Shown piece by piece: positions 3,737-29,422 of a stretch of DNA of 37,481 bases. Numbering within the stretch: the stretch's first letter is position 1; every line of letters starts with the position of its first letter. The DNA is from a virus, in the IMG/VR virus record IMGVR_UViG_3300045988_146796, positions 1 to 37,481 of that record. The stretch is one strand, 5' to 3'. The notes under the pieces were generated by a model that had not been told where the DNA came from, made no database searches, and saw nothing but the letters and a program-made list of their open reading frames with translations. A program made the translations under genes and the position numbers.

Positions 3737-4735
3737 ATGAACATCATTTTTTCGGAAAGCAGCGGCCTGAACGACAGCATCTATGGCAAGTGCCAGGCAC
3801 CGATCCGCATGTTCCTTGAGAAGCGAGGCGAGGAATTCGAGCAGAACAGCGTGCTCAAGAACCTGTTCTTCATGGGCAAGAGCGGCAACTACGCCGACAT
3901 GATGACCACCATGACGGCGATGAGCGGCTTTGAGCCGGTGGGCGAGAACGGCGCGTACCCTCTGGACGGCATGCAGGAGGGCTACCAGAAGCTCTTAAAG
4001 TACCAGACGTGGAAGGACTCGTTCAGCGTCTCGAAGGAGATGATGGAGGACGGCAAGCTGATGGACATGCGCAAGCAGCCCGCCGCCTTCATGACAAGCT
4101 ACAACCGCACGCGCGAGCTTTTCGGCGCGGCCCTGTACGGCGCGGCGATGAACGGCGCGGGCAGCGTGACCTTCAAGGGTGTCAAGTTCGACCTGACGGG
4201 TGCGGACGGCAGCAACCTGTTTGCAAAGGAGCACGCGCCGAAGGTGAGCGGCGACAAGCAGTGCAACTGCTTCAAGGACGCATTCAGCGTGGACGCGCTC
4301 GGCAAGCTCGAGACCGCGATGCACCTCTTCCGCGGCGACAACGACGAGATCCTCGACGTGGCGCCGGACACGATCCTGATCCCGGAGATCGCGACGCTCA
4401 AGAAGGACGTCTTTGCCGCCATCGGCGCGGACAAGGATCCCGTGAGCGCGAACAACGCCTTCAACTACCAGTATGGCCGCTGGAACGTCATCGTCTGGCC
4501 GTATCTCAACCAGTTCGTGACGAAAAACACAAACCCGTGGGTGCTGCTGGACAGCAAGTACAACGAGACCTACGGCGGCGCGGTATGGAACGACCGCGTG
4601 CAGCTTGAGGTGCGCTCGACCATCGACGAGAACACCGACGCGAACGTGTGGCGCGGCCGCAGCCGCTTCAACGCCGCCTTCAACGACTGGCGCTTTGCCG
4701 CCATCGGCGGCGTGGCAGCCGGCAACGCACTCTAA
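3737..4735 (+). CDS. Major capsid protein (presumably HK97 fold)
   Basis: The 332-aa ORF has a strong RBS (GGGAGAAAGGAGA) and sits after the scaffold and decoration genes. A stable hairpin follows it. The call rests on size, composition and position. Confidence 0.7.
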   Translation: MNIIFSESSGLNDSIYGKCQAPIRMFLEKRGEEFEQNSVLKNLFFMGKSGNYADMMTTMTAMSGFEPVGENGAYPLDGMQEGYQKLLKYQTWKDSFSVSKEMMEDGKLMDMRKQPAAFMTSYNRTRELFGAALYGAAMNGAGSVTFKGVKFDLTGADGSNLFAKEHAPKVSGDKQCNCFKDAFSVDALGKLETAMHLFRGDNDEILDVAPDTILIPEIATLKKDVFAAIGADKDPVSANNAFNYQYGRWNVIVWPYLNQFVTKNTNPWVLLDSKYNETYGGAVWNDRVQLEVRSTIDENTDANVWRGRSRFNAAFNDWRFAAIGGVAAGNAL

Positions 4736-14756: not shown

Positions 14757-17700
14757 ATGGCAATTAAAATCACGCAGATCAAGCCCGAGGGCGCGCAGAA
14801 AAGCGCGCCCTCGGCAAAAGACTATTTTGAAGAAAAGCCGAGAGGAGAGAATACCGAATACACCGGGCGCATCAAGATCACGAAGATTCCGAGCGCGGAG
14901 ACACCGTATCAGAGAGCTTTGGACGAGGCAATTTTGAGAGCATCGGCGGCGGGGCAGACGCAGCTGCCCCCGGGCAGCAAAAAGCCGGGAGCACCGATGA
15001 GACAGTCGGAATATCAAAAAGCGCTGGACGAGGCGATGATGAAACGCGCGGCGGCGGATCGGAAGAACCGGGAGCGGGGGCGCAGGAGCTACAACCGCTC
15101 GCACGCGCAGGAAGTGCGCGAGATCACCGGCGACAGGACGAAAAAGAGCATTACCCCCATCATCAAGAGCGCGGCGGCGGGCTATGCGGCGGATATGGTC
15201 GGCGCGGCAGACACGCTGCTGCGCGCGCCGAGCGGACTGAACTACGCGGCGAGTCAGGAGCGCGGAGAGATCGAAGCCTCGAAAAAGAACATCGCCGCCT
15301 ATACCGAAAAGCTCAAGGCGGCGAAGACGGAGGAGGAACGCCAGCAGTGGCAGACGCTGATCGACCGCAACAAGCGCCTCATCGAGATCAACAGCAAGGC
15401 TGCGGACGAGCGGGTGAAAAACTATCAGGACGCAACGAGGGGCGCGCAGGAGAAGCTGCAAGGCACCTATCAGAAGCTGCGCAAGACCGCGTCCGACAAC
15501 ATGGAAAAGGCAAACGAAGGGCTCACGCCGGTCGGCAAGTACCTCAACAACGTCGGCGTGGCGGGCGCGCAGATGGCCGCAGACGCGGCACTCGGCGGCG
15601 GCAGCGCGCTCGGCCCGATGTTCCTGCGCGTATTCGGCGGAAACTCGCAGGAGGCGGCGGAAGCGGCGGACAAGCCCGGCATGAGCGCGGCGGAACAGCT
15701 GGACGCACAGAACCGGGCACTGCTGTACGGCACGGCGAGCGGCGCGGTGAGCATCGCGACGGAGAAGATCAGCAACGTTGCAGCCCCGTTCAAGAAAGCG
15801 TTCGGCGGCGGCTTCCTCGACAAGGCCATCGACGGCGCGATCGCCAAGATGAACGGAAACGCGGCGGGGCGGCTCGCCCTGTCGTTCCTGTCCGAGGGCG
15901 GCGAGGAAGTTATTGAGGACATCGTGCAGCCAGCCTTGCAGACGATCTACAACGGGCAGAGCGCCGGACAGAATTACAGCGAGCTTGACGCGGCGGAGAT
16001 TCTGAACGACTTCCTCGTCGGCGGCGCGCTCGGTCTGATCGGCAGCGGCGTGGAAGGCATTCACAATGCGGACGCGCGGCTTGCCGCCGAGCGGGCGGCA
16101 GGGGAAGCGGCAGCGCCGACAGCCGAGCAGCAGAATACCATGCCCGCACAGCCTGCGGCGGCGCAGGAGGGCGCGCAGGGCGTGGGCGAGGGTAATTTAG
16201 CACCCGTACCGCAGAGCGCCGCACAGGGCGCGCAGGAGGCGAGCACAAGCGTTGACACGAACCCGAAGAACCACACGCCGGAAGAACAGAAGCGCGTGGA
16301 GGATTATCGGGCGGCAACGGATTCCGGCATCGTTGCATTTGTTCAGAAGGTGAGAACGCTGAAAAACCCGCGGTATAGAAATTCGGTAAGATACCCGGTA
16401 TCAGACGTTTCCGCGCGGGAAGCATCAGCAGTACTGGACGCAACCGGAGTGAACACAAGTGGTTTCACGAATATCCTGACCGGCGGAGCAGTTGACCATA
16501 TCGAGAAAAGGCACGGCGCAAGCGGCAAGGCAGACAAGAGTATGCAGGATCTGAACGACCTCGGGCGAGTCGGCTACATTCTCGAAAACTTCGATGGTGC
16601 AGAATTGCTCCTGAATGAAGATGGAACGCCGTCCGTGAGCGACGTATGGAAAAACAGCGACGGGACGCCTGCGGCAAGAATGCTTTTTACAAAAAAAGTA
16701 GACGGTGTATATTACACCGCCGTAGCAACGCCGGACAGCAATGCGGGAGTCATTGCCATCGAAAGCGCATTTATGAGCAAAGAAAAAGGAAGCACCGGCA
16801 CAGTCCTGAACATGGAGAATATCTCCCCGCAGGTTACGCCCGAAGCGCCACAGCGCGCTAATGCTTCCTTCGATAACACTGTACCACAGGAAAGCGGCGG
16901 CGTCAAGGCGCAGGAGGGCACAGAAAGCGCGCAGACGGCGCAAGCAGACAACACAACGACCGCAGGAGGAATGAACCATGGAGGACAAGAAGTACAGAAC
17001 CATGCCGGAGGGGCTGAGTTTGCCGACACTGCCAAAAGAGGCACGCCGGAAGCAGCCGACGCAGCGAGTGCATTACCTGATGGAGCTGCCGAACGGGGAG
17101 AGCGTGAGCGTGGCGGAAGAGAATCTGGACGCATTCCTCGAGAAGTACGGAACGTCGGCGGAGAAGACGGAAACGCGCTGACGGTACAACAGCGGCTTGC
17201 GGCATCCGGTATCTCACAATTCATCAGCCCACGGGAGGCCAACGTGCCGAACGGCGCAAGCGGCGATAACACCGTCACCATCTTTGACGAGGTGGACTGG
17301 GACCAGGAGCTTATCGGCGCGGCGGACTGGGCAAAGTCAAAGGGCGTGAAGAAGGTAACGGCGCTGCTCGGTGTCATCAACATTGAAAAGAACGGAAGGA
17401 CCGGAAAGGCTTTCGGTGTATTCAATGCAGACACGGGCGAAATTTTCGTCAATGCCGGATCAGTGCAGCGCAGTGTGAGCGAGACGATCGAGCATGAAAC
17501 GGCGCATTACCTGGCCGAAGTGGCGAGGCGCGAGAACGTCAGGACGTTTATGCGCGACGTTCAGAGCCGGTACAGCAGTGAAGAGTGGGGCAAGGCGTAC
17601 GATGCCTACTTTGACCGCTATGCAGCGCTGACGGGCGACTATGTGGGAATGAGCGAGAACGATATCGAGCTCTATGTGTGGGAAGAGATCATGGGCGATG

Positions 17701-20700
17701 CCTATGCCGAGATCGACCAGTATGATGAGAAGGCGAGCCGATTCAACCGCGAGGCTGAAAACGCGCTGTCGCAGAGCGCGCCGGAAGCGCCGGCGCACAC
17801 CGTCAGCGAGCCGGAGAACGTGCGTCTGCGTGCGGTGGACGAGCCGAAGGGCAGAGGGCCGCCGGAGAGATTTTCCCTGAACGAGTTTGAAGACGGCAGG
17901 CGGTTTGTGGATGTGCAGGCAGACCAAGCTCAGTTTGATGGGTTGAACGACAAGCAAAAAACAAAGCTGGCAATTCAAATTATCAAAGAGAGATTTTCGG
18001 GTAAAGTTATCGGTATTGACAACCGTGTGTTTGTCAACGGCAGAAGCGCGGCGGAATACGGACACCCCACAAAAAACATTTCTCCCGATATTCGAGACGC
18101 TAAAATGAGAGCGTCTACAGAACTGGATAACCTGATTGACGCCGGCACGAATTTCAGAACAGAGCCGGACGGAAAAGATGGGCACATTCATCATAACACA
18201 GCCGGGGATTTCCGCTATTTCGATACAACATTCAAAGTTGGGAATGAGTATTATAAGGGCGTTGTCAATATTTTGCCGGTTTCAAAAGGACTCCTTTTGA
18301 AAGATATTACAAAAATAGAAAGCATCACACAGGACATCAGTAGCTCATACGGGCAAAGCCCGAAGTCTACATTCCTGCGTGATGCTTCTATGAGCAGTAT
18401 ATCCAGAAACGGCGGAAATGTCAAGTACAGCGCGTTCAACGAGGAAGTGGCGCGGCAGCTGGCGGGTGAGGAACAGGAAAAACAGCGGTACAGCGCAGAG
18501 AGCGACGAGTTCTACGAACGCCTCGACGAAGAGCTTGCCGATGAAAAAGAGATCGACAGGCAGGAACGAGCCTATGAAAAGGCAGAGCGCGATGGAATGC
18601 GCACAGACTTCCCGTCGATCTCCGCGGAATGGAAGACAAAGCTCGAACGCGCGCGGGCGGCGGCAACGAACAACATCAAGCCGTCCGGCTTCGACAGCTA
18701 CGACGCTTACCTCGACGCGCTGGACAAGCAGCACGCGGCAGATCGCGCTGAGCGGCTGCGCGTCAAGAGCAGGGACGAGTTCAAAGGCACGAAGGCGCTC
18801 GACGAGCTGGGCGTGAAGATCGCAAACAGTGCGGGTATCTACCACAACGCAGAACAGCTCCTTGCCAACGACAAGGCGGCGAAGAGCATTCAGAAGGCAA
18901 CCAAGCGCGCCGAGCAGCGCCTGGGCGCAACGCGGCAGGAAAAGCGCATCGCGCGCGACATCGCAAACGGCGAGCGATCGATGGCCGATATTCCTCGCAG
19001 CGTGAAGAAATCGCGCGTGCTTGAGCTCGTAGACTATTACACGGCGCAGAAGGCAACAAAGACGGGGCTTTTGCAGCAGCAGCGCATTGAGATCAACGAC
19101 GCGCTGCGTGAGCAGGCGCGCGAGCTCATCGGCACGGAAGCCCCGGAGATCAATCGAAAGGGCTTGAGTAAGCTCTTCGACCCGAGTAAAGGCCTTGTGC
19201 TTTACCACCGCACGCCGCAGCGTATTATGCGCGCTCTCTTCGGCTGGAAGCAGGGGCAGAAGATCAACGAGGCCGTCTTTGAGCCGGTCTACGAGAACGA
19301 GCAGGAACGCAAGCGCTTCATCAACCGCTTGTTTGACGAGGTGCGAACCTTTGAAGGCGCGGACGGCAAGAAAAGCGCACTGAACAAGGACGAGAGCGCT
19401 TTCGCCCAAAAGCTGAAAGAGGGGCGTACCGTCGAAGAGCTGGTCGAAAAGTCCGGCGTGGCAGAGAGTATCAGAGCGGCGGCGGAAAACCTCAAGAACG
19501 GCGCAGAAATGAAAGACGCGGCGCGTGAGTTCAATCTTGACGAAGGATCCCGCAACCTGACGCGGCAATATGCCGACTGGCTGCAAACGCAGGAAGACTA
19601 TGCGGCGGCGGAGAATATCGACCGAATGAAGATCGAGAACGCGATCGAGAAGTATACCGAGCTCTACGATAAGCTCTATGCTGCGATCAACGACTTCCTT
19701 GTGGCGCACGGCTATGAGCCGATCGGCTTCATCAAGGGATATGCCCCGCACTTCCAGCCGGAGGCGGAGAGCAGCAAGCTCGAAAGCGCGCTCAAGGCCA
19801 TCGGCGTTGACCTCGGTTCCGGCGTGGGCAAGCTGCCGACAAGCATTGCAGGATTGACTAAATCCTTCAAGCCAAACAAGCGGTACAATCCGTTCTTCCA
19901 GCACCGCAGAGGCAATGAGACGGACTACGATATCGTCAAGGGCTTTGAGACATACGTGGACTACGCGAGCGATGTGCTGTATCACACGGACGACATCATG
20001 CGCGTGCGTCAGATGGCAAACTACCTGAGGTCGACATTCGCGCCGGAAGAGATGAAAGCAGATATCGACCAGATGGAGGCCATGCGCTACGCGCCGGCAG
20101 ACGTGAAGGAAGAATACTTACGAGATAAAAAGAAGATCGCAGACGACACCTTCTTGAGCTATGAAGATCTGACTGCCATGATGGAGCAATACACGGACGA
20201 GAAGTATCGCACAATGGAGGACGTTACAGAATTCAGCGATCTCGTCACATGGCTGGACGACTATGCGAACAAGCTCGCGGGCAAGCAGCTCTTTGAAGAC
20301 CGCCTGATGGAGCGCGAGGTCGGGCGCGAAGCGCTGAACGGCGCGAAGAAGCTCAACCGCATGTTCGCCCGCGCGAACGTTGCGGGCAACCTCTCATCGG
20401 CACTGAACCAGACGGCGCAGCTGCCAATGATCGCAACTGAGCTTGGGCAGAAAAACACATGGCGCGCCGTGGGTGATATCCTGCGATGGAAGACGACCGG
20501 CATGAGCGCATTCCGTGGGGAGAGCGACTTCCTGACGGAAAAGAGCGGCATCGACTATATCCAGAGCACCAAGGGAGAAAAGGCGCTGAAAGTGCTGTTC
20601 AGCCCACTGGAAAAGGTCGATACGCTCGTCAGCACGATCGCTGTGCGCGGAAAGTATCGCATGGAGCTGGACGCCGGAAAGAGCCCGAAAGAGGCGATGA

Positions 20701-21854
20701 AAGCGGCGGATCGTTGGGCGCGCGACATCATGGGTACACGCTCGAAGGGATCGGTGCCGCTGACGTTCCAATCGAAAAACCTCATCGCGCAGATGATGAA
20801 CATGTTTCAGGTCGAGGCGGCAAACACCTTCGAGCACGTCACGCAGGACAGGCTCGGCCCGGGATTCAAGGAAATGGCCGCAAAGATCGGCAAGGACAAG
20901 GCCATCAAAAAGCTTGCGAGCGACGCCATCGCCTACATGCTGCTTGCATTCCTGCTCAACCGGCTGGACGAAGAGCTGTACGGCGGAACACCGGCGCCCT
21001 TTGATGTCCTCGGCATGGGGCTGAATGCCGTAGCCTCCGGAAACGGTCTGACATCGAGCGACCTGCTCAAGACGATCATGGACAATGTGACCGAGAGCTT
21101 CTTCGGCGAGCGGCTCTTCGACACAGACCCGGACGCTATGAACGACGAGTTTGACGGCTGGGCGGCGGCAGAGGACACCTTGTACAACATCAGCAACGAT
21201 GTGCCGTATGTGCGCAACGTCTCCGGCCTGCTCGGCGTGGGAGACCAGACACTGCCGATGCCCGACATCGTCGGTGCACTGAGCAAAGGGAAAAAGGCGC
21301 TGAAAAATGCCGACAGTCCGGGCGAATTCTGGGCGGAGATCGCGCGGCAGCTCATGGGCCTTGCGGGAGACACGCTGCCGGGCGGCCGACAGGCCGAGAA
21401 AACCGCGCAGGGAATTGAAGCCGTTGCACGCGGCGGATCCTACAAGGGGAGCGGCGACAGCAAGCGGCTGCAATACCCGGTGGAGTCGCCGCTGGAAGAT
21501 CCGTGGACGGCGCTGCGGGCAGCCATCTTCGGCAAGAACGCGCTGCCGGAATCTCGCACATACTGGGCGGCGGGCGGCAAGGCGCTGAGCGCGGCGCAGA
21601 CGAGACTCTACGAAGATCTCGTGGACAGCGGCCTGAGCCGGAAGCGGGCATACGAGATCCTCAAGCGCTTCAACGACGCGACGGCGGATCTGGAAGCCGA
21701 CCGGGACAAGAACGGGAACCCCATCGGCGGGAGCAAGAAGGAAAAGATCGTCAAGGAGATCAATAAGCTGCCGCTGAGCCGGAAGCAGAAAAACATGCTC
21801 TATCTCAGCAGGGGATACAGCGAGAAGGATCTGAACGGCTTGCCGTGGAACTGA
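14757..21854 (+). CDS. Giant polyvalent virion or ejection protein, 2365 aa
   Basis: It is a single uninterrupted ORF. It contains a DHIEKRHG motif (16494-16517) in a PBECR/barnase-EndoU-like module and an HETAH zincin motif (17493-17507). It also has Gly/Ala-rich tape-measure-like N-terminal segments and a long helical C-terminal half. Confidence 0.6.
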   Translation: MAIKITQIKPEGAQKSAPSAKDYFEEKPRGENTEYTGRIKITKIPSAETPYQRALDEAILRASAAGQTQLPPGSKKPGAPMRQSEYQKALDEAMMKRAAADRKNRERGRRSYNRSHAQEVREITGDRTKKSITPIIKSAAAGYAADMVGAADTLLRAPSGLNYAASQERGEIEASKKNIAAYTEKLKAAKTEEERQQWQTLIDRNKRLIEINSKAADERVKNYQDATRGAQEKLQGTYQKLRKTASDNMEKANEGLTPVGKYLNNVGVAGAQMAADAALGGGSALGPMFLRVFGGNSQEAAEAADKPGMSAAEQLDAQNRALLYGTASGAVSIATEKISNVAAPFKKAFGGGFLDKAIDGAIAKMNGNAAGRLALSFLSEGGEEVIEDIVQPALQTIYNGQSAGQNYSELDAAEILNDFLVGGALGLIGSGVEGIHNADARLAAERAAGEAAAPTAEQQNTMPAQPAAAQEGAQGVGEGNLAPVPQSAAQGAQEASTSVDTNPKNHTPEEQKRVEDYRAATDSGIVAFVQKVRTLKNPRYRNSVRYPVSDVSAREASAVLDATGVNTSGFTNILTGGAVDHIEKRHGASGKADKSMQDLNDLGRVGYILENFDGAELLLNEDGTPSVSDVWKNSDGTPAARMLFTKKVDGVYYTAVATPDSNAGVIAIESAFMSKEKGSTGTVLNMENISPQVTPEAPQRANASFDNTVPQESGGVKAQEGTESAQTAQADNTTTAGGMNHGGQEVQNHAGGAEFADTAKRGTPEAADAASALPDGAAERGERERGGRESGRIPREVRNVGGEDGNALTVQQRLAASGISQFISPREANVPNGASGDNTVTIFDEVDWDQELIGAADWAKSKGVKKVTALLGVINIEKNGRTGKAFGVFNADTGEIFVNAGSVQRSVSETIEHETAHYLAEVARRENVRTFMRDVQSRYSSEEWGKAYDAYFDRYAALTGDYVGMSENDIELYVWEEIMGDAYAEIDQYDEKASRFNREAENALSQSAPEAPAHTVSEPENVRLRAVDEPKGRGPPERFSLNEFEDGRRFVDVQADQAQFDGLNDKQKTKLAIQIIKERFSGKVIGIDNRVFVNGRSAAEYGHPTKNISPDIRDAKMRASTELDNLIDAGTNFRTEPDGKDGHIHHNTAGDFRYFDTTFKVGNEYYKGVVNILPVSKGLLLKDITKIESITQDISSSYGQSPKSTFLRDASMSSISRNGGNVKYSAFNEEVARQLAGEEQEKQRYSAESDEFYERLDEELADEKEIDRQERAYEKAERDGMRTDFPSISAEWKTKLERARAAATNNIKPSGFDSYDAYLDALDKQHAADRAERLRVKSRDEFKGTKALDELGVKIANSAGIYHNAEQLLANDKAAKSIQKATKRAEQRLGATRQEKRIARDIANGERSMADIPRSVKKSRVLELVDYYTAQKATKTGLLQQQRIEINDALREQARELIGTEAPEINRKGLSKLFDPSKGLVLYHRTPQRIMRALFGWKQGQKINEAVFEPVYENEQERKRFINRLFDEVRTFEGADGKKSALNKDESAFAQKLKEGRTVEELVEKSGVAESIRAAAENLKNGAEMKDAAREFNLDEGSRNLTRQYADWLQTQEDYAAAENIDRMKIENAIEKYTELYDKLYAAINDFLVAHGYEPIGFIKGYAPHFQPEAESSKLESALKAIGVDLGSGVGKLPTSIAGLTKSFKPNKRYNPFFQHRRGNETDYDIVKGFETYVDYASDVLYHTDDIMRVRQMANYLRSTFAPEEMKADIDQMEAMRYAPADVKEEYLRDKKKIADDTFLSYEDLTAMMEQYTDEKYRTMEDVTEFSDLVTWLDDYANKLAGKQLFEDRLMEREVGREALNGAKKLNRMFARANVAGNLSSALNQTAQLPMIATELGQKNTWRAVGDILRWKTTGMSAFRGESDFLTEKSGIDYIQSTKGEKALKVLFSPLEKVDTLVSTIAVRGKYRMELDAGKSPKEAMKAADRWARDIMGTRSKGSVPLTFQSKNLIAQMMNMFQVEAANTFEHVTQDRLGPGFKEMAAKIGKDKAIKKLASDAIAYMLLAFLLNRLDEELYGGTPAPFDVLGMGLNAVASGNGLTSSDLLKTIMDNVTESFFGERLFDTDPDAMNDEFDGWAAAEDTLYNISNDVPYVRNVSGLLGVGDQTLPMPDIVGALSKGKKALKNADSPGEFWAEIARQLMGLAGDTLPGGRQAEKTAQGIEAVARGGSYKGSGDSKRLQYPVESPLEDPWTALRAAIFGKNALPESRTYWAAGGKALSAAQTRLYEDLVDSGLSRKRAYEILKRFNDATADLEADRDKNGNPIGGSKKEKIVKEINKLPLSRKQKNMLYLSRGYSEKDLNGLPWN

Positions 21855-21901: not shown

Positions 21902-22402
21902 TTACTCCCAGTGATGGAACTCCCGGACAAATTGCTTCGCCCTCGCCTTATTCTCCGCGACATATTCTGCGAAAATGGGAGAACGGCTCTCGCTGGCATG
22001 TGACTCCATGACGGAAAAGGCAAACGAAGGGAAGTTGATAGGAACATAAACGTCTTTTTTCCGACCGATTGGTTTATTCTTACGCCCCAATTCGCACAAA
22101 GTGCGATAAGATTCAATGGCGCTCCAATTAAAACGAACAGCTTCGTCATAATCAATTTCGCCAGAGAAGGACAGGCCGGCAATGAAACCGGATACAAGCC
22201 CTTCCTGCCGGGCGGCGCGACTCTCCCCGCTTGGCGCATCGGATGCGCGAGTCAGCGCAAAATAAAGGGCTACAGCGATAACGCAAAACAGTTCAAAAAC
22301 GCCGAAAAGGTCTCGCCGTGCCGCATCGACCGCGCGAACAACGAAGCCAAGACAGCCGACAGAGAGAACGGCAAGTAACAGATAATAAAAGATTTTTTTC
22401 AC
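21902..22402 (-). CDS. Membrane (possibly lipo-) protein, 166 aa, probable moron
   Basis: GTG 22402 lies 6 nt after GAGGTG. The N-terminus MKKIFYYLLLAVLSVGC is signal- or lipobox-like, and a second hydrophobic helix (LFGVFELFCVIAVALYFAL) follows. It is one of the few genes on the minus strand. Confidence 0.6.
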   Translation of the reverse strand: MKKIFYYLLLAVLSVGCLGFVVRAVDAARRDLFGVFELFCVIAVALYFALTRASDAPSGESRAARQEGLVSGFIAGLSFSGEIDYDEAVRFNWSAIESYRTLCELGRKNKPIGRKKDVYVPINFPSFAFSVMESHASESRSPIFAEYVAENKARAKQFVREFHHWE

Positions 22403-22563
22403 AACAAGCACCTCGCTTTAGAGACACAATATCGGAAAAGCGGCGGTTTGTCAAATTGAAAAAAGCAAGGCGGGAGCCACGCCATCTGCTTGCACAATGA
22501 AAGAATATAAGGAGCAAAAGGCTGCATATGCAGAATCCATACTGTCTTTTTGAATATTAACTA

Positions 22564-22592
22564 TTTACAAGTTGCAAAAAAGGGTGTAGAAT
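22564..22592 (+). promoter_or_regulatory. Sigma-70-like promoter TTTACA-N17-TAGAAT for the Dcd-fold::TM gene
   Basis: I read the hexamers and spacing directly. The element lies about 27 nt upstream of ATG 22619, and AAGGAGGA lies at 22604-22611. Confidence 0.55.
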
Positions 22593-22618
22593 CCGACTAT
22601 TCAAAGGAGGAAACTGCC

Positions 22619-23416
22619 ATGGTACTTGTAGATCGCGACATCACAAGGATGGTGGAGAGCAATAGCCTAATCGAGAACTTTGATAAAAGTTGCCTTACAA
22701 ATATCGGGTACGACTTGCGGGCAGAGTATTTCGCGGTCAACTGGAAAGAGGAACGCTCCGTTACATTAAGACCAGGAGAATCAGTATTTGTTGCTTCAAA
22801 AGAAGCAGTCAGACTGCCGGATAATCTGTTAGGGCGAGTTTATTTGAAGAACAGCAGAATAAGACAGGGATTGTCGCTAGAATCGCCTGTATATCAGCCT
22901 AGACATTTCACGAAGGTATTCTTCCGGCTGAGAAATGTATCAAGCGGAGAAATTAAGCTGTCCGAGAACCAAAAATACGCCATGATCGTCTTTGAACAGT
23001 TGAGCGGAGAGCCTGACGAGCCGTATCACGGGGCATTCCAAAGTGAGATCGACTTCAAAGGGCTTGCTGACTATACAGAAATCTATAAGGGGCAAGTAGA
23101 AGAGATTGAGAAAAAGACCGAGGACCTAAAAAACATGGAGCATAACATTTACGCAAACGTCCTCGTAATCTTAACTGTATTTGTCGCATTGTTCTCTTTC
23201 TTGACTACGAACATCGGCCTGTTCTCAAGAGAGAGCAGCAGCGCTGAATTCGCACTTTATAATTTTATCATGCTAGGCGGAATCAGCTTCTTAGTCGCCA
23301 CACTTTGCAGCACAATCGGGACAAACAAATTTGCCAAATGGGCTATTTGGATAGCTACCATCGTTTTCTTCGCCGCTGCATTCTTTTTGCTATGGAAAAC
23401 AAAAATCATTACATAA
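22619..23416 (+). CDS. dCTP deaminase/dUTPase-fold domain (apparently catalytically degenerate) fused to a coiled coil and three TM helices; candidate defence or exclusion protein
   Basis: The blocks MVLVDRDI, IGYDLR, LRPGE...LPDNLLGRVYLKNSRIRQGL, FFRLRN and IVFEQLSGEPDEPY resemble Dcd family blocks. The C-terminal hydrophobic segments are NVLVILTVFVALFSFLTT, FIMLGGISFLVATLCSTI and WAIWIATIVFFAAAFFLLW. The gene is markedly AT-richer than the phage backbone. Confidence 0.6.
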   Translation: MVLVDRDITRMVESNSLIENFDKSCLTNIGYDLRAEYFAVNWKEERSVTLRPGESVFVASKEAVRLPDNLLGRVYLKNSRIRQGLSLESPVYQPRHFTKVFFRLRNVSSGEIKLSENQKYAMIVFEQLSGEPDEPYHGAFQSEIDFKGLADYTEIYKGQVEEIEKKTEDLKNMEHNIYANVLVILTVFVALFSFLTTNIGLFSRESSSAEFALYNFIMLGGISFLVATLCSTIGTNKFAKWAIWIATIVFFAAAFFLLWKTKIIT

Positions 23417-23421
23417 TTCAC

Positions 23422-23450
23422 AAAGGCAGGGCACTCGCCCTGCCTTTGCC
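23422..23450 (+). terminator. Rho-independent-like terminator
   Basis: AAAGGCAGGGC-ACTC-GCCCTGCCTTT forms a perfect 11-bp stem, and its last three bases are T. Confidence 0.7.
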
Positions 23451-23487: not shown

Positions 23488-23539
23488 AATTATGGTTAAA
23501 TGAAGTCCGGGCCACCGGATACCAATTAACCATAAAAAT
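23488..23539. other. Candidate attP core for the serine integrase (imperfect 50-bp inverted repeat)
   Basis: AATTATGGTTAA-ATGAAG-TCCGG-GCCA-CCGGA-TACCAA-TTAACCATAAAA lies immediately 3' of int. It could alternatively be the int terminator. Confidence 0.4.
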
Positions 23540-27544: not shown

Positions 27545-29422
27545 ATGAAAGGAGATTTTCTTCCCCGCCATTATAGCATGCGGCGGGGAAGAAGTGCAAG
27601 GGGAATGCTGGAACGAAATTATCAGAAAAGCGCGCTCGACGAGCTGAGTGTCGTGCTTTTTGCGGGCGGAGGGGGCAGCGACACGGGAATCTCGTGTATG
27701 ACCGGCAAGCCCGTTGACATCGCTATCAACCATGACGCCGATGCGATCCGGATGCATAAGACGAACCACCCTTGGACGCGGCATTTGCAGGAGGACGTTT
27801 TCGCAGTAGATCCGAAAGAGGTCTGCGCCGACCAGAAGGTCGGCATTCTGTGGGCCTCACCGGACTGCACACACTTCTCCAGGGCGCGCGGCGGCGTGCC
27901 GGTCAAGAAAGAGATTCGCGGGCTCTCGTGGGTTGTGGTCAAATGGGCGCTCGCCGTGCGGCCGCGCGTGATGTTCATGGAGAATGTCGAAGAAATCCAG
28001 ACATGGGGGCCGTGCATCGAAACGCCGAAGGGGTTGCAGCCGGACCCTGCACGGGCGGGGGAGACTTTCAAGGGCTTCCTTGCCATGCTGACAAGCGGCA
28101 TTGCACCGGATCATCCGGCGCTCAAGGAATGCTGCGAGTTTCTGCACGTCTCAGAAGGCAGCACGGAGGCGAAGCGGCTGATCGCTGGTCTCGGCTACGA
28201 CTTCGGCAGCAAAATTCTATGCGCTGCAGATTATGGCGTGCCGACCATCCGCAAGCGCTGGTTCGCCGTGTTCCGCTGCGACGGGCAGCCGGTGAAATTT
28301 CCCGAGCCTACTCACGCCAAAGACGGGAAGGACGGCCTGCCGCGCTGGCGAAGCGCCGCAGAGGTCATTGACTGGGCACTTCCGTGCCCGAGCATTTTCG
28401 CCAGCAAAGCAGAGATCGCAGAGAGGTACGGGCTAAAAGCTGTTCGTCCGTTGGCGGACAACACGATGCGCCGCGTCATCCGCGGCGTGGACAAGTTTAC
28501 CATTAAAAGCGGGAAGCCATTCCTTGTGGAGTGCAATCACGGCGGTGACGGGCACACGCGAAGTATCGAAACGCCTGTCAACACCATAACGGGCCGCTAT
28601 ACCGGCGGCGTGTGCAAATCCGTGCTGTCGCCGCTGACCATGAGCAATGTTTCCGGCGCGGCGGGCACGGACTGCCGTGCACCATTGAACACAGCGCGCA
28701 CGAGCGGCGGGGGCGGCCAGATGCTTATTGCATCCAGTCTGATTCAGTATCACACCGAGAGAACGGAGAGCGCACGGGTGCAAGGGCTCGGCGCTCCGCT
28801 GCAAACGGTGGACGGATCCAACCGCTACGGCCTCGCGTCCGCAAACCTCATTGAATATTACAGCAACGGCCGGCCGCTCGACATCAGAGAGCCAATACAT
28901 ACGCAGACAGCAAAAGACCGCGACGCGCTGATGATAACGCACATCTGCAAATTCAAGGGCGACAACATCGGACAAGCCCCGGCGGAACCTTTGCAAACCG
29001 TTACTGCCTCGGCGGGAGAATTCGCCGCCGTCAAAGTAACGATTGAGCGCTGCAAGAACGGCGCGGGGCTGGGCTTCTGGCCGAAGGTGAGGGTGCTGCT
29101 GAATACATATTGCGGCTACGATCTCGGCGATGACGAGATTATCCTGCTCTGGATCAGCGGCGCGGCGTACTTTATCAGCGATATCGGGTTGAGGATGCTG
29201 ACGCCGCGCGAGCTGTATAACGCGATGGGGTTTCCGCCGGACTATGTTATTGACCGCGATTATACGGGCAAAGAGTACAAGCGCAGCGCCCAGGTCGCAC
29301 GATGCGGGAATGCGGTATGCCCGCCCGTCGCGGGCGCCTTGGTTGCCGTTAACCTGAAAGACTGCGCACTGCCGCATTATATCGGCACACTGAGCGAGCT
29401 GTGGGAAAGGGTGAGCGCATGA
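27545..29422 (+). CDS. DNA (cytosine-5)-methyltransferase with an unusually long variable (target-recognition) region
   Basis: Recognised motifs are I (LFAGGGG), IV (SPDCTHFS), VI (MENVEEI), VIII (TIRKRWF), IX-like (LTPRELYNAMGFP) and X (GNAVCPPV). About 300 aa separate motifs VIII and IX. The start codon is uncertain (27545, 27578 or 27605). Confidence 0.85.
   Translation: MKGDFLPRHYSMRRGRSARGMLERNYQKSALDELSVVLFAGGGGSDTGISCMTGKPVDIAINHDADAIRMHKTNHPWTRHLQEDVFAVDPKEVCADQKVGILWASPDCTHFSRARGGVPVKKEIRGLSWVVVKWALAVRPRVMFMENVEEIQTWGPCIETPKGLQPDPARAGETFKGFLAMLTSGIAPDHPALKECCEFLHVSEGSTEAKRLIAGLGYDFGSKILCAADYGVPTIRKRWFAVFRCDGQPVKFPEPTHAKDGKDGLPRWRSAAEVIDWALPCPSIFASKAEIAERYGLKAVRPLADNTMRRVIRGVDKFTIKSGKPFLVECNHGGDGHTRSIETPVNTITGRYTGGVCKSVLSPLTMSNVSGAAGTDCRAPLNTARTSGGGGQMLIASSLIQYHTERTESARVQGLGAPLQTVDGSNRYGLASANLIEYYSNGRPLDIREPIHTQTAKDRDALMITHICKFKGDNIGQAPAEPLQTVTASAGEFAAVKVTIERCKNGAGLGFWPKVRVLLNTYCGYDLGDDEIILLWISGAAYFISDIGLRMLTPRELYNAMGFPPDYVIDRDYTGKEYKRSAQVARCGNAVCPPVAGALVAVNLKDCALPHYIGTLSELWERVSA

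Follow-up and report, generated by a model that had tools for sequence, protein, structure and literature searches.

The gene at positions 22619-23416 (plus strand) of the 37,481-bp stretch analysed here (IMG/VR virus record IMGVR_UViG_3300045988_146796, positions 1 to 37,481, hereafter the window) raises the question of what a protein that joins a domain of the dCTP deaminase (Dcd)/dUTPase fold to three transmembrane (TM) helices does in a prophage. The window is a prophage of gut Clostridia, and the reading of its open reading frames (ORFs) gave a self-contained gene with a product of 265 amino acids (aa), designated DCD-3TM. A first-pass annotation had described the N-terminal domain as degenerate and had proposed a new single-gene abortive-infection or superinfection-exclusion module. 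The evidence assembled here gives a roughly even chance that DCD-3TM is a defence or exclusion module with a Dcd pseudoenzyme as the sensor and a membrane effector. The parts of the gene, listed by position, are as follows.

22619..23416, plus strand: DCD-3TM gene, encoding the 265-aa protein, stop codon included; full-length relatives form more than 200 clusters at 90% identity
22619..22999, plus strand: beta-barrel of the Dcd/dUTPase fold, residues 1-127, with the motifs TNIGYDLR, LKNSRIRQGL, PVYQP(G/R)HxT and FFRL(T/R)N
23000..23062, plus strand: flexible C-terminal arm (PxPYxGxFxxE), residues 128-148, matching the active-site lid region of Dcd
23063..23149, plus strand: charged stalk helix, residues 149-177, which runs into TM1 in the AlphaFold2 (AF2) model
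23150..23221, plus strand: TM1 by hydropathy, residues 178-201, the most conserved of the helices, with N180, I184 and N198 on the a/d stripe of its heptads
23252..23317, plus strand: TM2 by hydropathy, residues 212-233, with N215, L219, G220, F224 and L225 nearly invariant
23345..23404, plus strand: TM3 by hydropathy, residues 243-262, the least conserved of the helices, with W244, F251 and A254 sharing one face

Conservation of the Dcd-like domain

The Dcd-like blocks noticed earlier in the N-terminal half were borne out by profile and structure comparisons. The protein matched the Pfam DCD family (PF22769) with an E value of 3.4e-12 (score 47 bits, cutoff 27 bits) and phrog_1663 with E 9.5e-16, and its match to the NCBIfam model TIGR02274 (dCTP_deam), at 58 bits, fell under the equivalog cutoff of 92.8. 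A phmmer search of the PDB returned the Thermococcus Dcd-like dUTPases 8y1w and 9ln0 as the top matches, followed by the bifunctional enzyme of M. tuberculosis. In an AF2 monomer model built from 121 sequences, the confidence score (predicted local distance difference test, pLDDT) was 86 for the whole chain and >90 for residues 1-127, and comparison of the model with dUTPase 9ln0 in Foldseek gave a TM-score of 0.84, a root mean square deviation of 2.1 Å and an E value of 2e-13. Only the N-terminal half of the model aligned to any structure in the PDB or in BFVD.

The catalytic columns were located by hhalign of E. coli Dcd, in a sequence identical to 1xs1_A, to the profile of the family (probability 95%). 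The correspondences between the E. coli residues and those of the window protein are as follows.

E. coli R110: K77
E. coli S111: N78
E. coli S112: S79
E. coli R115: R82
E. coli D128: Q93
E. coli G130: R95 (Gly in the family)
E. coli W131: H96
E. coli E138: R103
E. coli N141: N106
E. coli Y171: Y136

A phmmer alignment to M. tuberculosis Dcd agrees for the E129 and D119 columns. The PDB holds E138A and E138D variants of the E. coli enzyme and E145A and E145Q variants of the M. jannaschii enzyme, showing that this Glu has been chosen for mutation in solved structures. As judged by the residues of a dCTP deaminase, both the catalytic Glu (E138 in E. coli, E129 in M. tuberculosis, E145 in M. jannaschii) and Ser111 are replaced in the window protein; as judged by those of a trimeric dUTPase, the catalytic Asp of motif III (the D of DPGW/F) is replaced by Q93. 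The motif-1 Asp (D32), the phosphate cradle formed by a basic residue, a Ser and a more distant Arg (K/R77, S79 and R82), and the Tyr of the closing arm (Y136) are kept. The Glu-to-Arg change that had been suspected was thus found in the E138 column, and the change of DPGW to QPRH was likewise recovered, as D128-P-G-W aligns with Q93-P-R95-H96 where the family consensus is QPGH. The further reading of GRSS as KNSR was one position out of register, as G109-R-S-S aligns with L76-K77-N78-S79; the first Ser is changed to Asn and the second is retained.

The replacements are a property of the family. The family numbers 210 clusters at 90% identity in a database of 5.8 billion proteins, all of about 260 aa and of one architecture, and an exhaustive profile search of 1.84 billion representatives at 50% identity gave 156 matches below 1e-30. 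In the alignment of 121 sequences, the residues D5, Y31, D32, F57, N78, R80, R82, P90, Q93, P94, H96, R103, N106 are invariant in the N-terminal half, as are Y136, G138, E143, Y152, Y156, Y178, N180, I184 and G220 from the arm onward. A more divergent set of 149 representatives at 50% identity was used for residue counts: R103 is present in 138 of 144, H96 in 139 of 145, N78 in 138 of 141, R82 in 137 of 142, and Y136 in 142 representatives, and position 93 is occupied in this set by Q, F, H, Y or R but never by Asp. Hence, the Dcd-like domain is not degenerate, as had been supposed; it is tightly conserved and under strong constraint, with the replacement residues themselves fixed. Because the nucleotide-holding residues are kept, those for deamination and pyrophosphate hydrolysis are replaced, and the replacements are fixed, the domain bears the signature of a pseudoenzyme predicted to bind a ligand still, a pattern that does not by itself prove the loss of all catalysis.

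In Dcd and in dUTPases, a C-terminal arm closes over the bound nucleotide, and from this knowledge of the superfamily residues 128-148 would act as a lid. The arm residues Y136, G138 and E143 are those invariant in the alignment. Mean pLDDT in blocks of ten residues was 78 over 131-140 and 57-59 over 141-160, the lowest values of the chain except for its last five residues.

The window protein departs from its relatives at two positions of the domain. Arg95 (codon 22901-22903) stands where 117 of the 121 relatives have Gly, and Arg105 (codon 22931-22933) where Thr is usual, placing two extra basic residues close to the predicted pocket. As the identical 265-aa protein recurs on four contigs from different samples, these residues are not a sequencing error.

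Stalk and membrane helices

The C-terminus with three TM helices was confirmed by hydropathy, with segments at residues 178-201, 212-233 and 243-262. The charged segment said to precede them is present, but in the AF2 model it is not a separate element: stalk and TM1 form a single unbroken helix of 55 residues (149-203). Conservation along residues 149-201 is concentrated on an a/d stripe that comprises L149, Y152, Y156, Q159, I163, K166, L170, I177, N180, I184, L191, F194 and N198; this was the best of seven heptad phases, with a permutation p of 0.001 before correction for the choice of phase. Within the membrane, N180, I184 and G220 are invariant and N198, N215 and W244 are at least 98% conserved, so that Asn is present at 98% or more at two positions of TM1 (N180 and N198) and one of TM2 (N215). 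The loop between TM2 and TM3 is rich in Lys, and by the positive-inside rule the Dcd-like domain is therefore predicted to face the cytoplasm.

A kinship of the helices with known membrane proteins was sought and two candidates were rejected. The LptF/LptG family (PF03739) scored 24.7 bits against a cutoff of 27.9 and matched one of the 34 C-termini of the family, a likeness that is compositional, and the CorA-like models of PADLOC matched the TM region with E values of only 0.007 and 0.055. In nr, a truncated call of a family member (P0271, residues 122-265) carries the name 'MAG TPA: Lipopolysaccharide export system permease LptF/LptG [Caudoviricetes sp.]', which is an artefact, since the Pfam match is sub-threshold and seen in only one of 34 members. 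No match to the profiles SLATT_1 to SLATT_5 was obtained at E up to 10 for the window protein, nor for the 34 C-termini. A profile of the stalk and three helices was built from these 34 C-termini, and all that it retrieved were truncated gene calls from within the family, a weak negative as the search needs shared words of five residues.

An autonomous low-GC cassette and its genomic contexts

The gene carries its own expression signals, which are given here with the hairpin that follows it.

22564..22592, plus strand: sigma-70-type promoter-like site TTTACA-N17-TAGAAT, from a consensus scan; function predicted
22604..22611, plus strand: ribosome-binding site AAAGGAGG, read from the sequence 7 nt 5' of the ATG; a GGAGG-type site is kept in relatives
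23421..23448, plus strand: perfect hairpin with a 12-bp stem (23421-23432 and 23437-23448) and a 4-nt loop, 5 nt past the stop codon

The ATG-encoded Met is the start in 119 of the 121 relatives, and a longer, TTG-initiated reading from 22550 is for this reason unlikely. The G+C (GC) content of the gene is 0.434 compared with 0.600 in the remaining window, in agreement with the earlier remark that the gene is AT-richer than the phage backbone, and it was below that of the flanks in 27 of 28 loci, typically by 6-18 points. The promoter proposed earlier, TTTACA-N17-TAGAAT, is present. In the promoter-consensus scan, the number of such sites equalled the chance expectation. At about 9 of the 12 unrelated loci compared, however, the equivalent TTTACA and TATAAT hexamers are kept upstream of the gene, and when the 105 nt preceding it are aligned for 12 relatives in unrelated contexts, the consensus reads TTTACAAA ... 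GGTGTATAAT ... GGAGG ... ATG. As this layout of -35 box, -10 box and ribosome-binding site is kept across unrelated contexts, the expression signals travel with the gene. With its low GC content and a predicted promoter of its own, the DCD-3TM gene is an autonomous cassette carried by mobile elements. The stem of the hairpin at 23421-23448 is perfect, as had been noted, but of 12 bp and not 11; its T tail is weak and a terminator-consensus scan of the region did not include it among its matches. It is likely a terminator common to the DCD-3TM gene and the convergent integrase gene.

All matches in genomes were to metagenome-assembled genomes (MAGs) of gut Clostridia, namely Oscillospiraceae, Lawsonibacter, Faecousia, Oscillibacter, Faecalibacterium and Lachnospiraceae. 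No member of the family was found in the 50,697 phage records of INPHARED or in the plasmids of PLSDB, where searches gave only soluble Dcd proteins or dUTPases (~25% identity) and one distant relative from Rhizobium. In at least eight different prophages the gene adjoins a tyrosine or serine integrase and regulators of the CI/ImmA type, lysin-integrase-gene-repressor being a frequent order, and an integrase lies no more than 4 kb away in 8 of the 10 full-length IMG/VR copies. One copy is found in a prophage remnant of lysin, integrase and DCD-3TM gene only, beside the host RNase Y gene. The moron or lysogenic-conversion slot proposed for the gene therefore recurs in many unrelated prophages, but it does not describe most of the MAG copies, which stand alone in the chromosome. 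Across the contexts examined no neighbouring gene is conserved, and a conserved operon partner such as a cyclase was found in none of them.

A defence-island setting was found at one locus (L045, 1814-11811), a type I restriction-modification (R-M) operon (hsdM, hsdS ... hsdR) with three genes inserted between hsdS and hsdR. These encode the Shedu protein SduA (E 1.7e-109), a PDC-S25 SIR2 protein (E 1e-171) and a DCD-3TM member, P0179, which at 351 aa has a C-terminal extension beyond TM3 and itself gave no match in PADLOC.

A sister family uses the same N-terminal domain with another C-terminus. In about 24 clusters of full-length relatives of 302-310 aa (P0209 and others), an alpha/beta domain takes the place of stalk and helices, and the N-terminal domain keeps the KNS..R, QPGH.T and R..N motifs, R103 and QPGH among them. 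The C-terminal domain of P0209 matched the PADLOC model for the CBASS 'TIR effector' (E 9.6e-5), showed sub-threshold similarity to Nuc_deoxyrib_tr/DNPH1 (E 0.07-0.3), and has a beta-alpha-beta pattern of secondary structure. Because the Foldseek list for the P0209 model was filled by matches of the N-terminal domain, the call for the C-terminal domain draws on these three observations, and a TIR/deoxyribosyltransferase-like domain is probable, with moderate support. The same C-terminal domain is fused elsewhere to NUDIX, Cpn60_TCP1-like (chaperonin-like) and ricin-lectin N-termini. On a mobilisable element with a relaxase and MobC (L041, 2711-8930), a 1205-aa ORF, a SLATT_1/DUF4231 protein, a DUF4062 protein and P0209 are encoded in a row. 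Immune sensors are commonly built in this way, one N-terminal domain being combined with different killing modules.

The distant relative from Rhizobium lies on a plasmid of Rhizobium beringeri (NZ_CP140875; L047, 2292-9091), where the Gabija pair GajA (E 1e-279) and GajB (E 7e-248) is followed directly by three genes. The first encodes the distant Dcd-like protein, with two C-terminal TM helices and with ADPGF still in place. The products of the other two, of 117 and 324 aa, were judged by eye from their translations to be MazG-like and Old Yellow Enzyme-like, respectively. The genes adjoining Gabija may form another nucleotide-centred candidate system.

Five viral contigs in IMG/VR (L066-L070) encode a version of 157 aa with about 55% identity (in L067, for example, at 4001-4474). 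These versions end exactly where the stalk helix would start, leaving the soluble sensor domain alone. They could result from decay, or the phages could carry them as a decoy or sponge for the ligand of the full-length protein.

Within the window, the 5' side of the DCD-3TM gene is taken up by a 2365-aa ORF of the polyvalent type and then a small minus-strand ORF with two TM helices; on the 3' side, in convergent orientation, lie a 498-aa large serine recombinase and then a helix-turn-helix repressor. The further features of this surrounding are listed below.

14757-21854, plus strand: giant ORF of 2365 aa that includes a nuclease domain of the PBECR3 type (Barnase/EndoU/colicin-like)
21902-22411, minus strand: 169-aa ORF of low GC content with two N-terminal TM helices, divergent from the DCD-3TM gene
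23490-23535: imperfect palindrome of 21 + 21 nt, 81% complementary, with a 4-nt centre, between the DCD-3TM hairpin and the stop codon of the serine recombinase
27545-29422, plus strand, early region of this phage: C-5 cytosine DNA methylase (PF00145, E 8.8e-22)

The 2365-aa ORF appears to be a phage 'polyvalent protein' whose modules have been exchanged, and its relatives in L018-L020, of 2658-2936 aa, carry LPD23/LPD3 or MuF_C/PBECR5 domains. The 169-aa ORF had no match in Pfam or PADLOC. It was rejected as a partner of DCD-3TM, being present only in the nearest relatives of the window (L018-L020), and L001 has an unrelated ORF at that place; the 169-aa ORF probably represents an accessory gene in its own right. 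The palindrome is a candidate attP core.

Proposed function of DCD-3TM and relation to known systems

A defence or exclusion module built from these parts would work as follows. DCD-3TM would be a stand-alone cargo of mobile elements, expressed constitutively from its own promoter, in the lysogen included, and would protect the host, and hence the prophage, from incoming phage as a nucleotide-sensing membrane effector. Members of the Dcd/dUTPase superfamily assemble as homotrimers with ligand pockets at the subunit interfaces, and the Dcd-like domain would do the same. Its pocket would keep D32, K/R77, S79, R82 and Y136, with the deaminase Glu changed to Arg103, Ser111 to Asn78 and the dUTPase-type Asp to Gln93; since the holding residues are kept and the catalytic ones lost, it is proposed that a pyrimidine (deoxy)nucleotide-like anion is bound without turnover. 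The lid arm would become ordered or disordered with occupancy by the ligand or its loss and, as the arm is continuous with the 55-residue helix of stalk and TM1, occupancy is proposed to be passed to the membrane part, where the three TM1 helices would re-pack. These helices would line a central path with rings of Asn (N180 and N198), and their rearrangement would open a polar leak, upon which the membrane depolarises and the infection aborts or the cell arrests. The trigger might be a nucleotide found only during infection (dUTP, 5-hydroxymethyl-dUTP or 5-hydroxymethyl-dCTP) or the loss of a normal one or, alternatively, a phage protein that binds the trimer. We infer the trimer, its ligand, the gating and coupling, the pore and the phenotype, with abortive infection or exclusion suggested by context and architecture.

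The most explicit form of this scheme, a ligand-gated trimeric channel in which the Dcd/dUTPase pseudoenzyme reads the pyrimidine deoxynucleotide state with no second messenger or partner protein, is tentative and somewhat doubtful. The inputs of such a channel would be dUTP, 5-hydroxymethyl-dUTP or 5-hydroxymethyl-dCTP from phages with modified DNA, or a collapse of dCTP or dTTP, and the same sensor domain would have been reused with a TIR-like effector in the sister family.

Several points weigh against a sensor and effector in defence. Even with the canonical catalytic residues lost, other chemistry could run through the Arg, His or Asn that are invariant. The ligand pocket was placed from a sequence alignment, and the window allele, having Arg95 instead of Gly95, could be atypical. 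The models of PADLOC-DB v2 gave no match to the window protein beyond the weak CorA-like ones. The stalk and three helices were found attached to no other sensor in the search by shared five-residue words, so that their status as an effector is taken from this family. Most of the 18 MAG loci are solitary islets flanked by housekeeping genes that vary between genomes (ABC transporter, Mur ligase, pyrroline-5-carboxylate reductase, aminotransferase), and the two ORFs inspected on either side included no defence gene; the link to defence islands comes from one member of the family (P0179) and one distant relative (Rhizobium).

Among other explanations, a membrane-tethered active enzyme would act as a hydrolase or deaminase on a pyrimidine nucleotide, either canonical or modified by phage, by way of R103, H96 and N78, and the TM helices would only anchor it close to where DNA enters or is replicated; it would defend the cell by depleting or cleaning the pool of deoxynucleoside triphosphates (dNTPs), or would serve the nucleotide metabolism of the prophage itself. 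In its favour, D32, the Asp of motif 1, is invariant together with the residues that bind the nucleotide, the nearest structures are genuine dUTPases, the invariant polar residues of the pocket could make a new active site, and nucleotide depletion is an established logic of defence (bioRxiv 10.1101/2021.04.26.441389). However, both residues of the chemistry are replaced and position 93 varies (Q/F/H/Y/R), unlike a catalytic residue, a mere anchor needs neither 98-100% Asn in its TM helices nor a phase-conserved stalk, and the fusion of the same domain to a TIR-like effector suits a sensor better, which makes an enzyme improbable. A low probability is also given to a protein of superinfection exclusion (Sie) or injection blocking, or another product of lysogenic conversion, whose Dcd-like domain would be a trimerisation scaffold or a decoy for a phage protein such as an inhibitor of host Dut or Dcd. 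The integrase-repressor slot, which recurs among the loci of the family, is occupied in temperate phages of Firmicutes (lactococcal and streptococcal) by Sie-type membrane proteins, and trimeric dUTPases bind regulators such as Stl, the repressor of the staphylococcal pathogenicity island SaPI; the entries 6h4c, 3zez and 8p8o in the Foldseek list, going by their titles, presumably stem from work on dUTPase and Stl. Against such a role, the invariant residues align with the nucleotide pocket of Dcd and are not spread over the sequence, copies in an R-M/defence island and solitary copies in chromosomes also exist, and the soluble domain is predicted to be cytoplasmic and therefore would not face an incoming phage.

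A toxin-like module of addiction or maintenance, or a membrane protein of some other benefit to the element with no anti-phage role, would account for a single low-GC unit that moves between elements and for its survival in the remnant of lysin, integrase and DCD-3TM gene, and membrane-active proteins are often toxic. This is nevertheless quite unlikely, as no conserved antitoxin-like neighbour was seen in the loci examined, the promoter looks constitutive, which would be lethal for an unregulated toxin, and the conserved ligand pocket implies a regulated activity. Least probable is an ordinary housekeeping protein of the membrane or of nucleotide homeostasis in Oscillospiraceae and Lachnospiraceae that prophages have picked up; many MAG copies do lie between housekeeping genes, but the flanks differ between genomes, the gene is 4-21 GC points below them nearly everywhere, its promoter is its own, its distribution is patchy with frequent integrase neighbours, and it is absent from the INPHARED and PLSDB collections searched.

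Compared with the enzymes of its own fold, namely Dcd, the bifunctional Dcd:dUTPase and the archaeal Dcd-like dUTPases (PF22769; 1xs1, 2qxx, 8y1w, 9ln0), DCD-3TM shares the beta-barrel, the Asp of motif 1, the K/R-x-S...R that binds phosphate, the PY of the C-terminal arm and the column of N106. It differs in the changes of Glu to Arg, of Ser111 to Asn and of the DPGW Asp to Gln (Phe or His in the family), in the deletion of the H121 loop, and in the stalk and three TM helices, a fusion that no solved relative and no viral relative in BFVD has.

Effectors that join a sensor to TM helices include Cap15 and the S-2TM/4TM proteins of CBASS, PycTM of Pycsar, Cam1 and CorA of type III CRISPR, and the SLATT proteins. 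The logic is alike, in that a small nucleotide-binding domain with few TM helices is encoded on mobile elements or islands and the expected result is disruption of the membrane with abortive infection. However, there is no sequence or profile relation, the loci of the family have no conserved partner gene for producing a signal, the sensor is of the Dcd fold and not SAVED, CARF, cNMP-binding or the beta-barrel of those effectors, and the expected oligomer is a trimer. A SLATT_1 gene adjoins only the sister family (P0209).

The defensive dCTP deaminases, with which the first-pass annotation compared the protein, combine a zinc-dependent cytidine deaminase with kinase domains (Tal et al., bioRxiv 10.1101/2021.04.26.441389). 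Both concern pyrimidine deoxynucleotides and phage defence, but the fold is unrelated, dCTP is depleted enzymatically and there is no TM part, whereas DCD-3TM lacks the catalytic residues of its own fold; as zinc cytidine deaminase and kinase proteins are not homologues, the comparison is one of name only. A precedent in concept is Kongming, in which a base-modified dNTP (dITP) is reported to be the immune signal (bioRxiv 10.1101/2024.12.20.629578), so that a bacterial immune effector can read a non-canonical deoxynucleotide. Kongming differs in being a multi-gene system of other proteins, with an effector that is reportedly soluble and NAD+-consuming, and it is likened here by the concept of the signal with no homology implied. 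The description of DCD-3TM as a system not yet known stands, as PADLOC and NCBIfam hold no model for the protein and the literature search gave no description of the Dcd-TM architecture, of the fixed Arg-for-Glu signature or of this family. The DefensePredictor study names a 'dUTPase' domain as one of its predicted but unvalidated defence domains (PMC13092281, Fig. 6F, with reference to Burroughs et al. 2015), and use of the superfamily in immunity is therefore not a new idea; neither TM helices fused to the domain nor a loss of catalysis is spoken of in its accessible text.

If the reading of DCD-3TM as a defence or exclusion module is true, the protein would represent a new sensor fold in bacterial immunity, in which a housekeeping enzyme of dNTP metabolism has been turned into a receptor, and a new one-protein route from sensing of the nucleotide pool to membrane killing. 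It would also offer a compact model for the coupling of C-terminal-arm ordering in the dUTPase superfamily to a TM helix. The family is so far confined to uncultured gut Clostridia and their prophages and, being invisible to PADLOC and NCBIfam and mislabelled in nr for at least one truncated call, it marks a blind spot in the annotation of defence in gut microbiomes. Should DCD-3TM instead be an active enzyme or a scaffold, it would still represent a new conserved family of prophage cargo with a defined motif signature.

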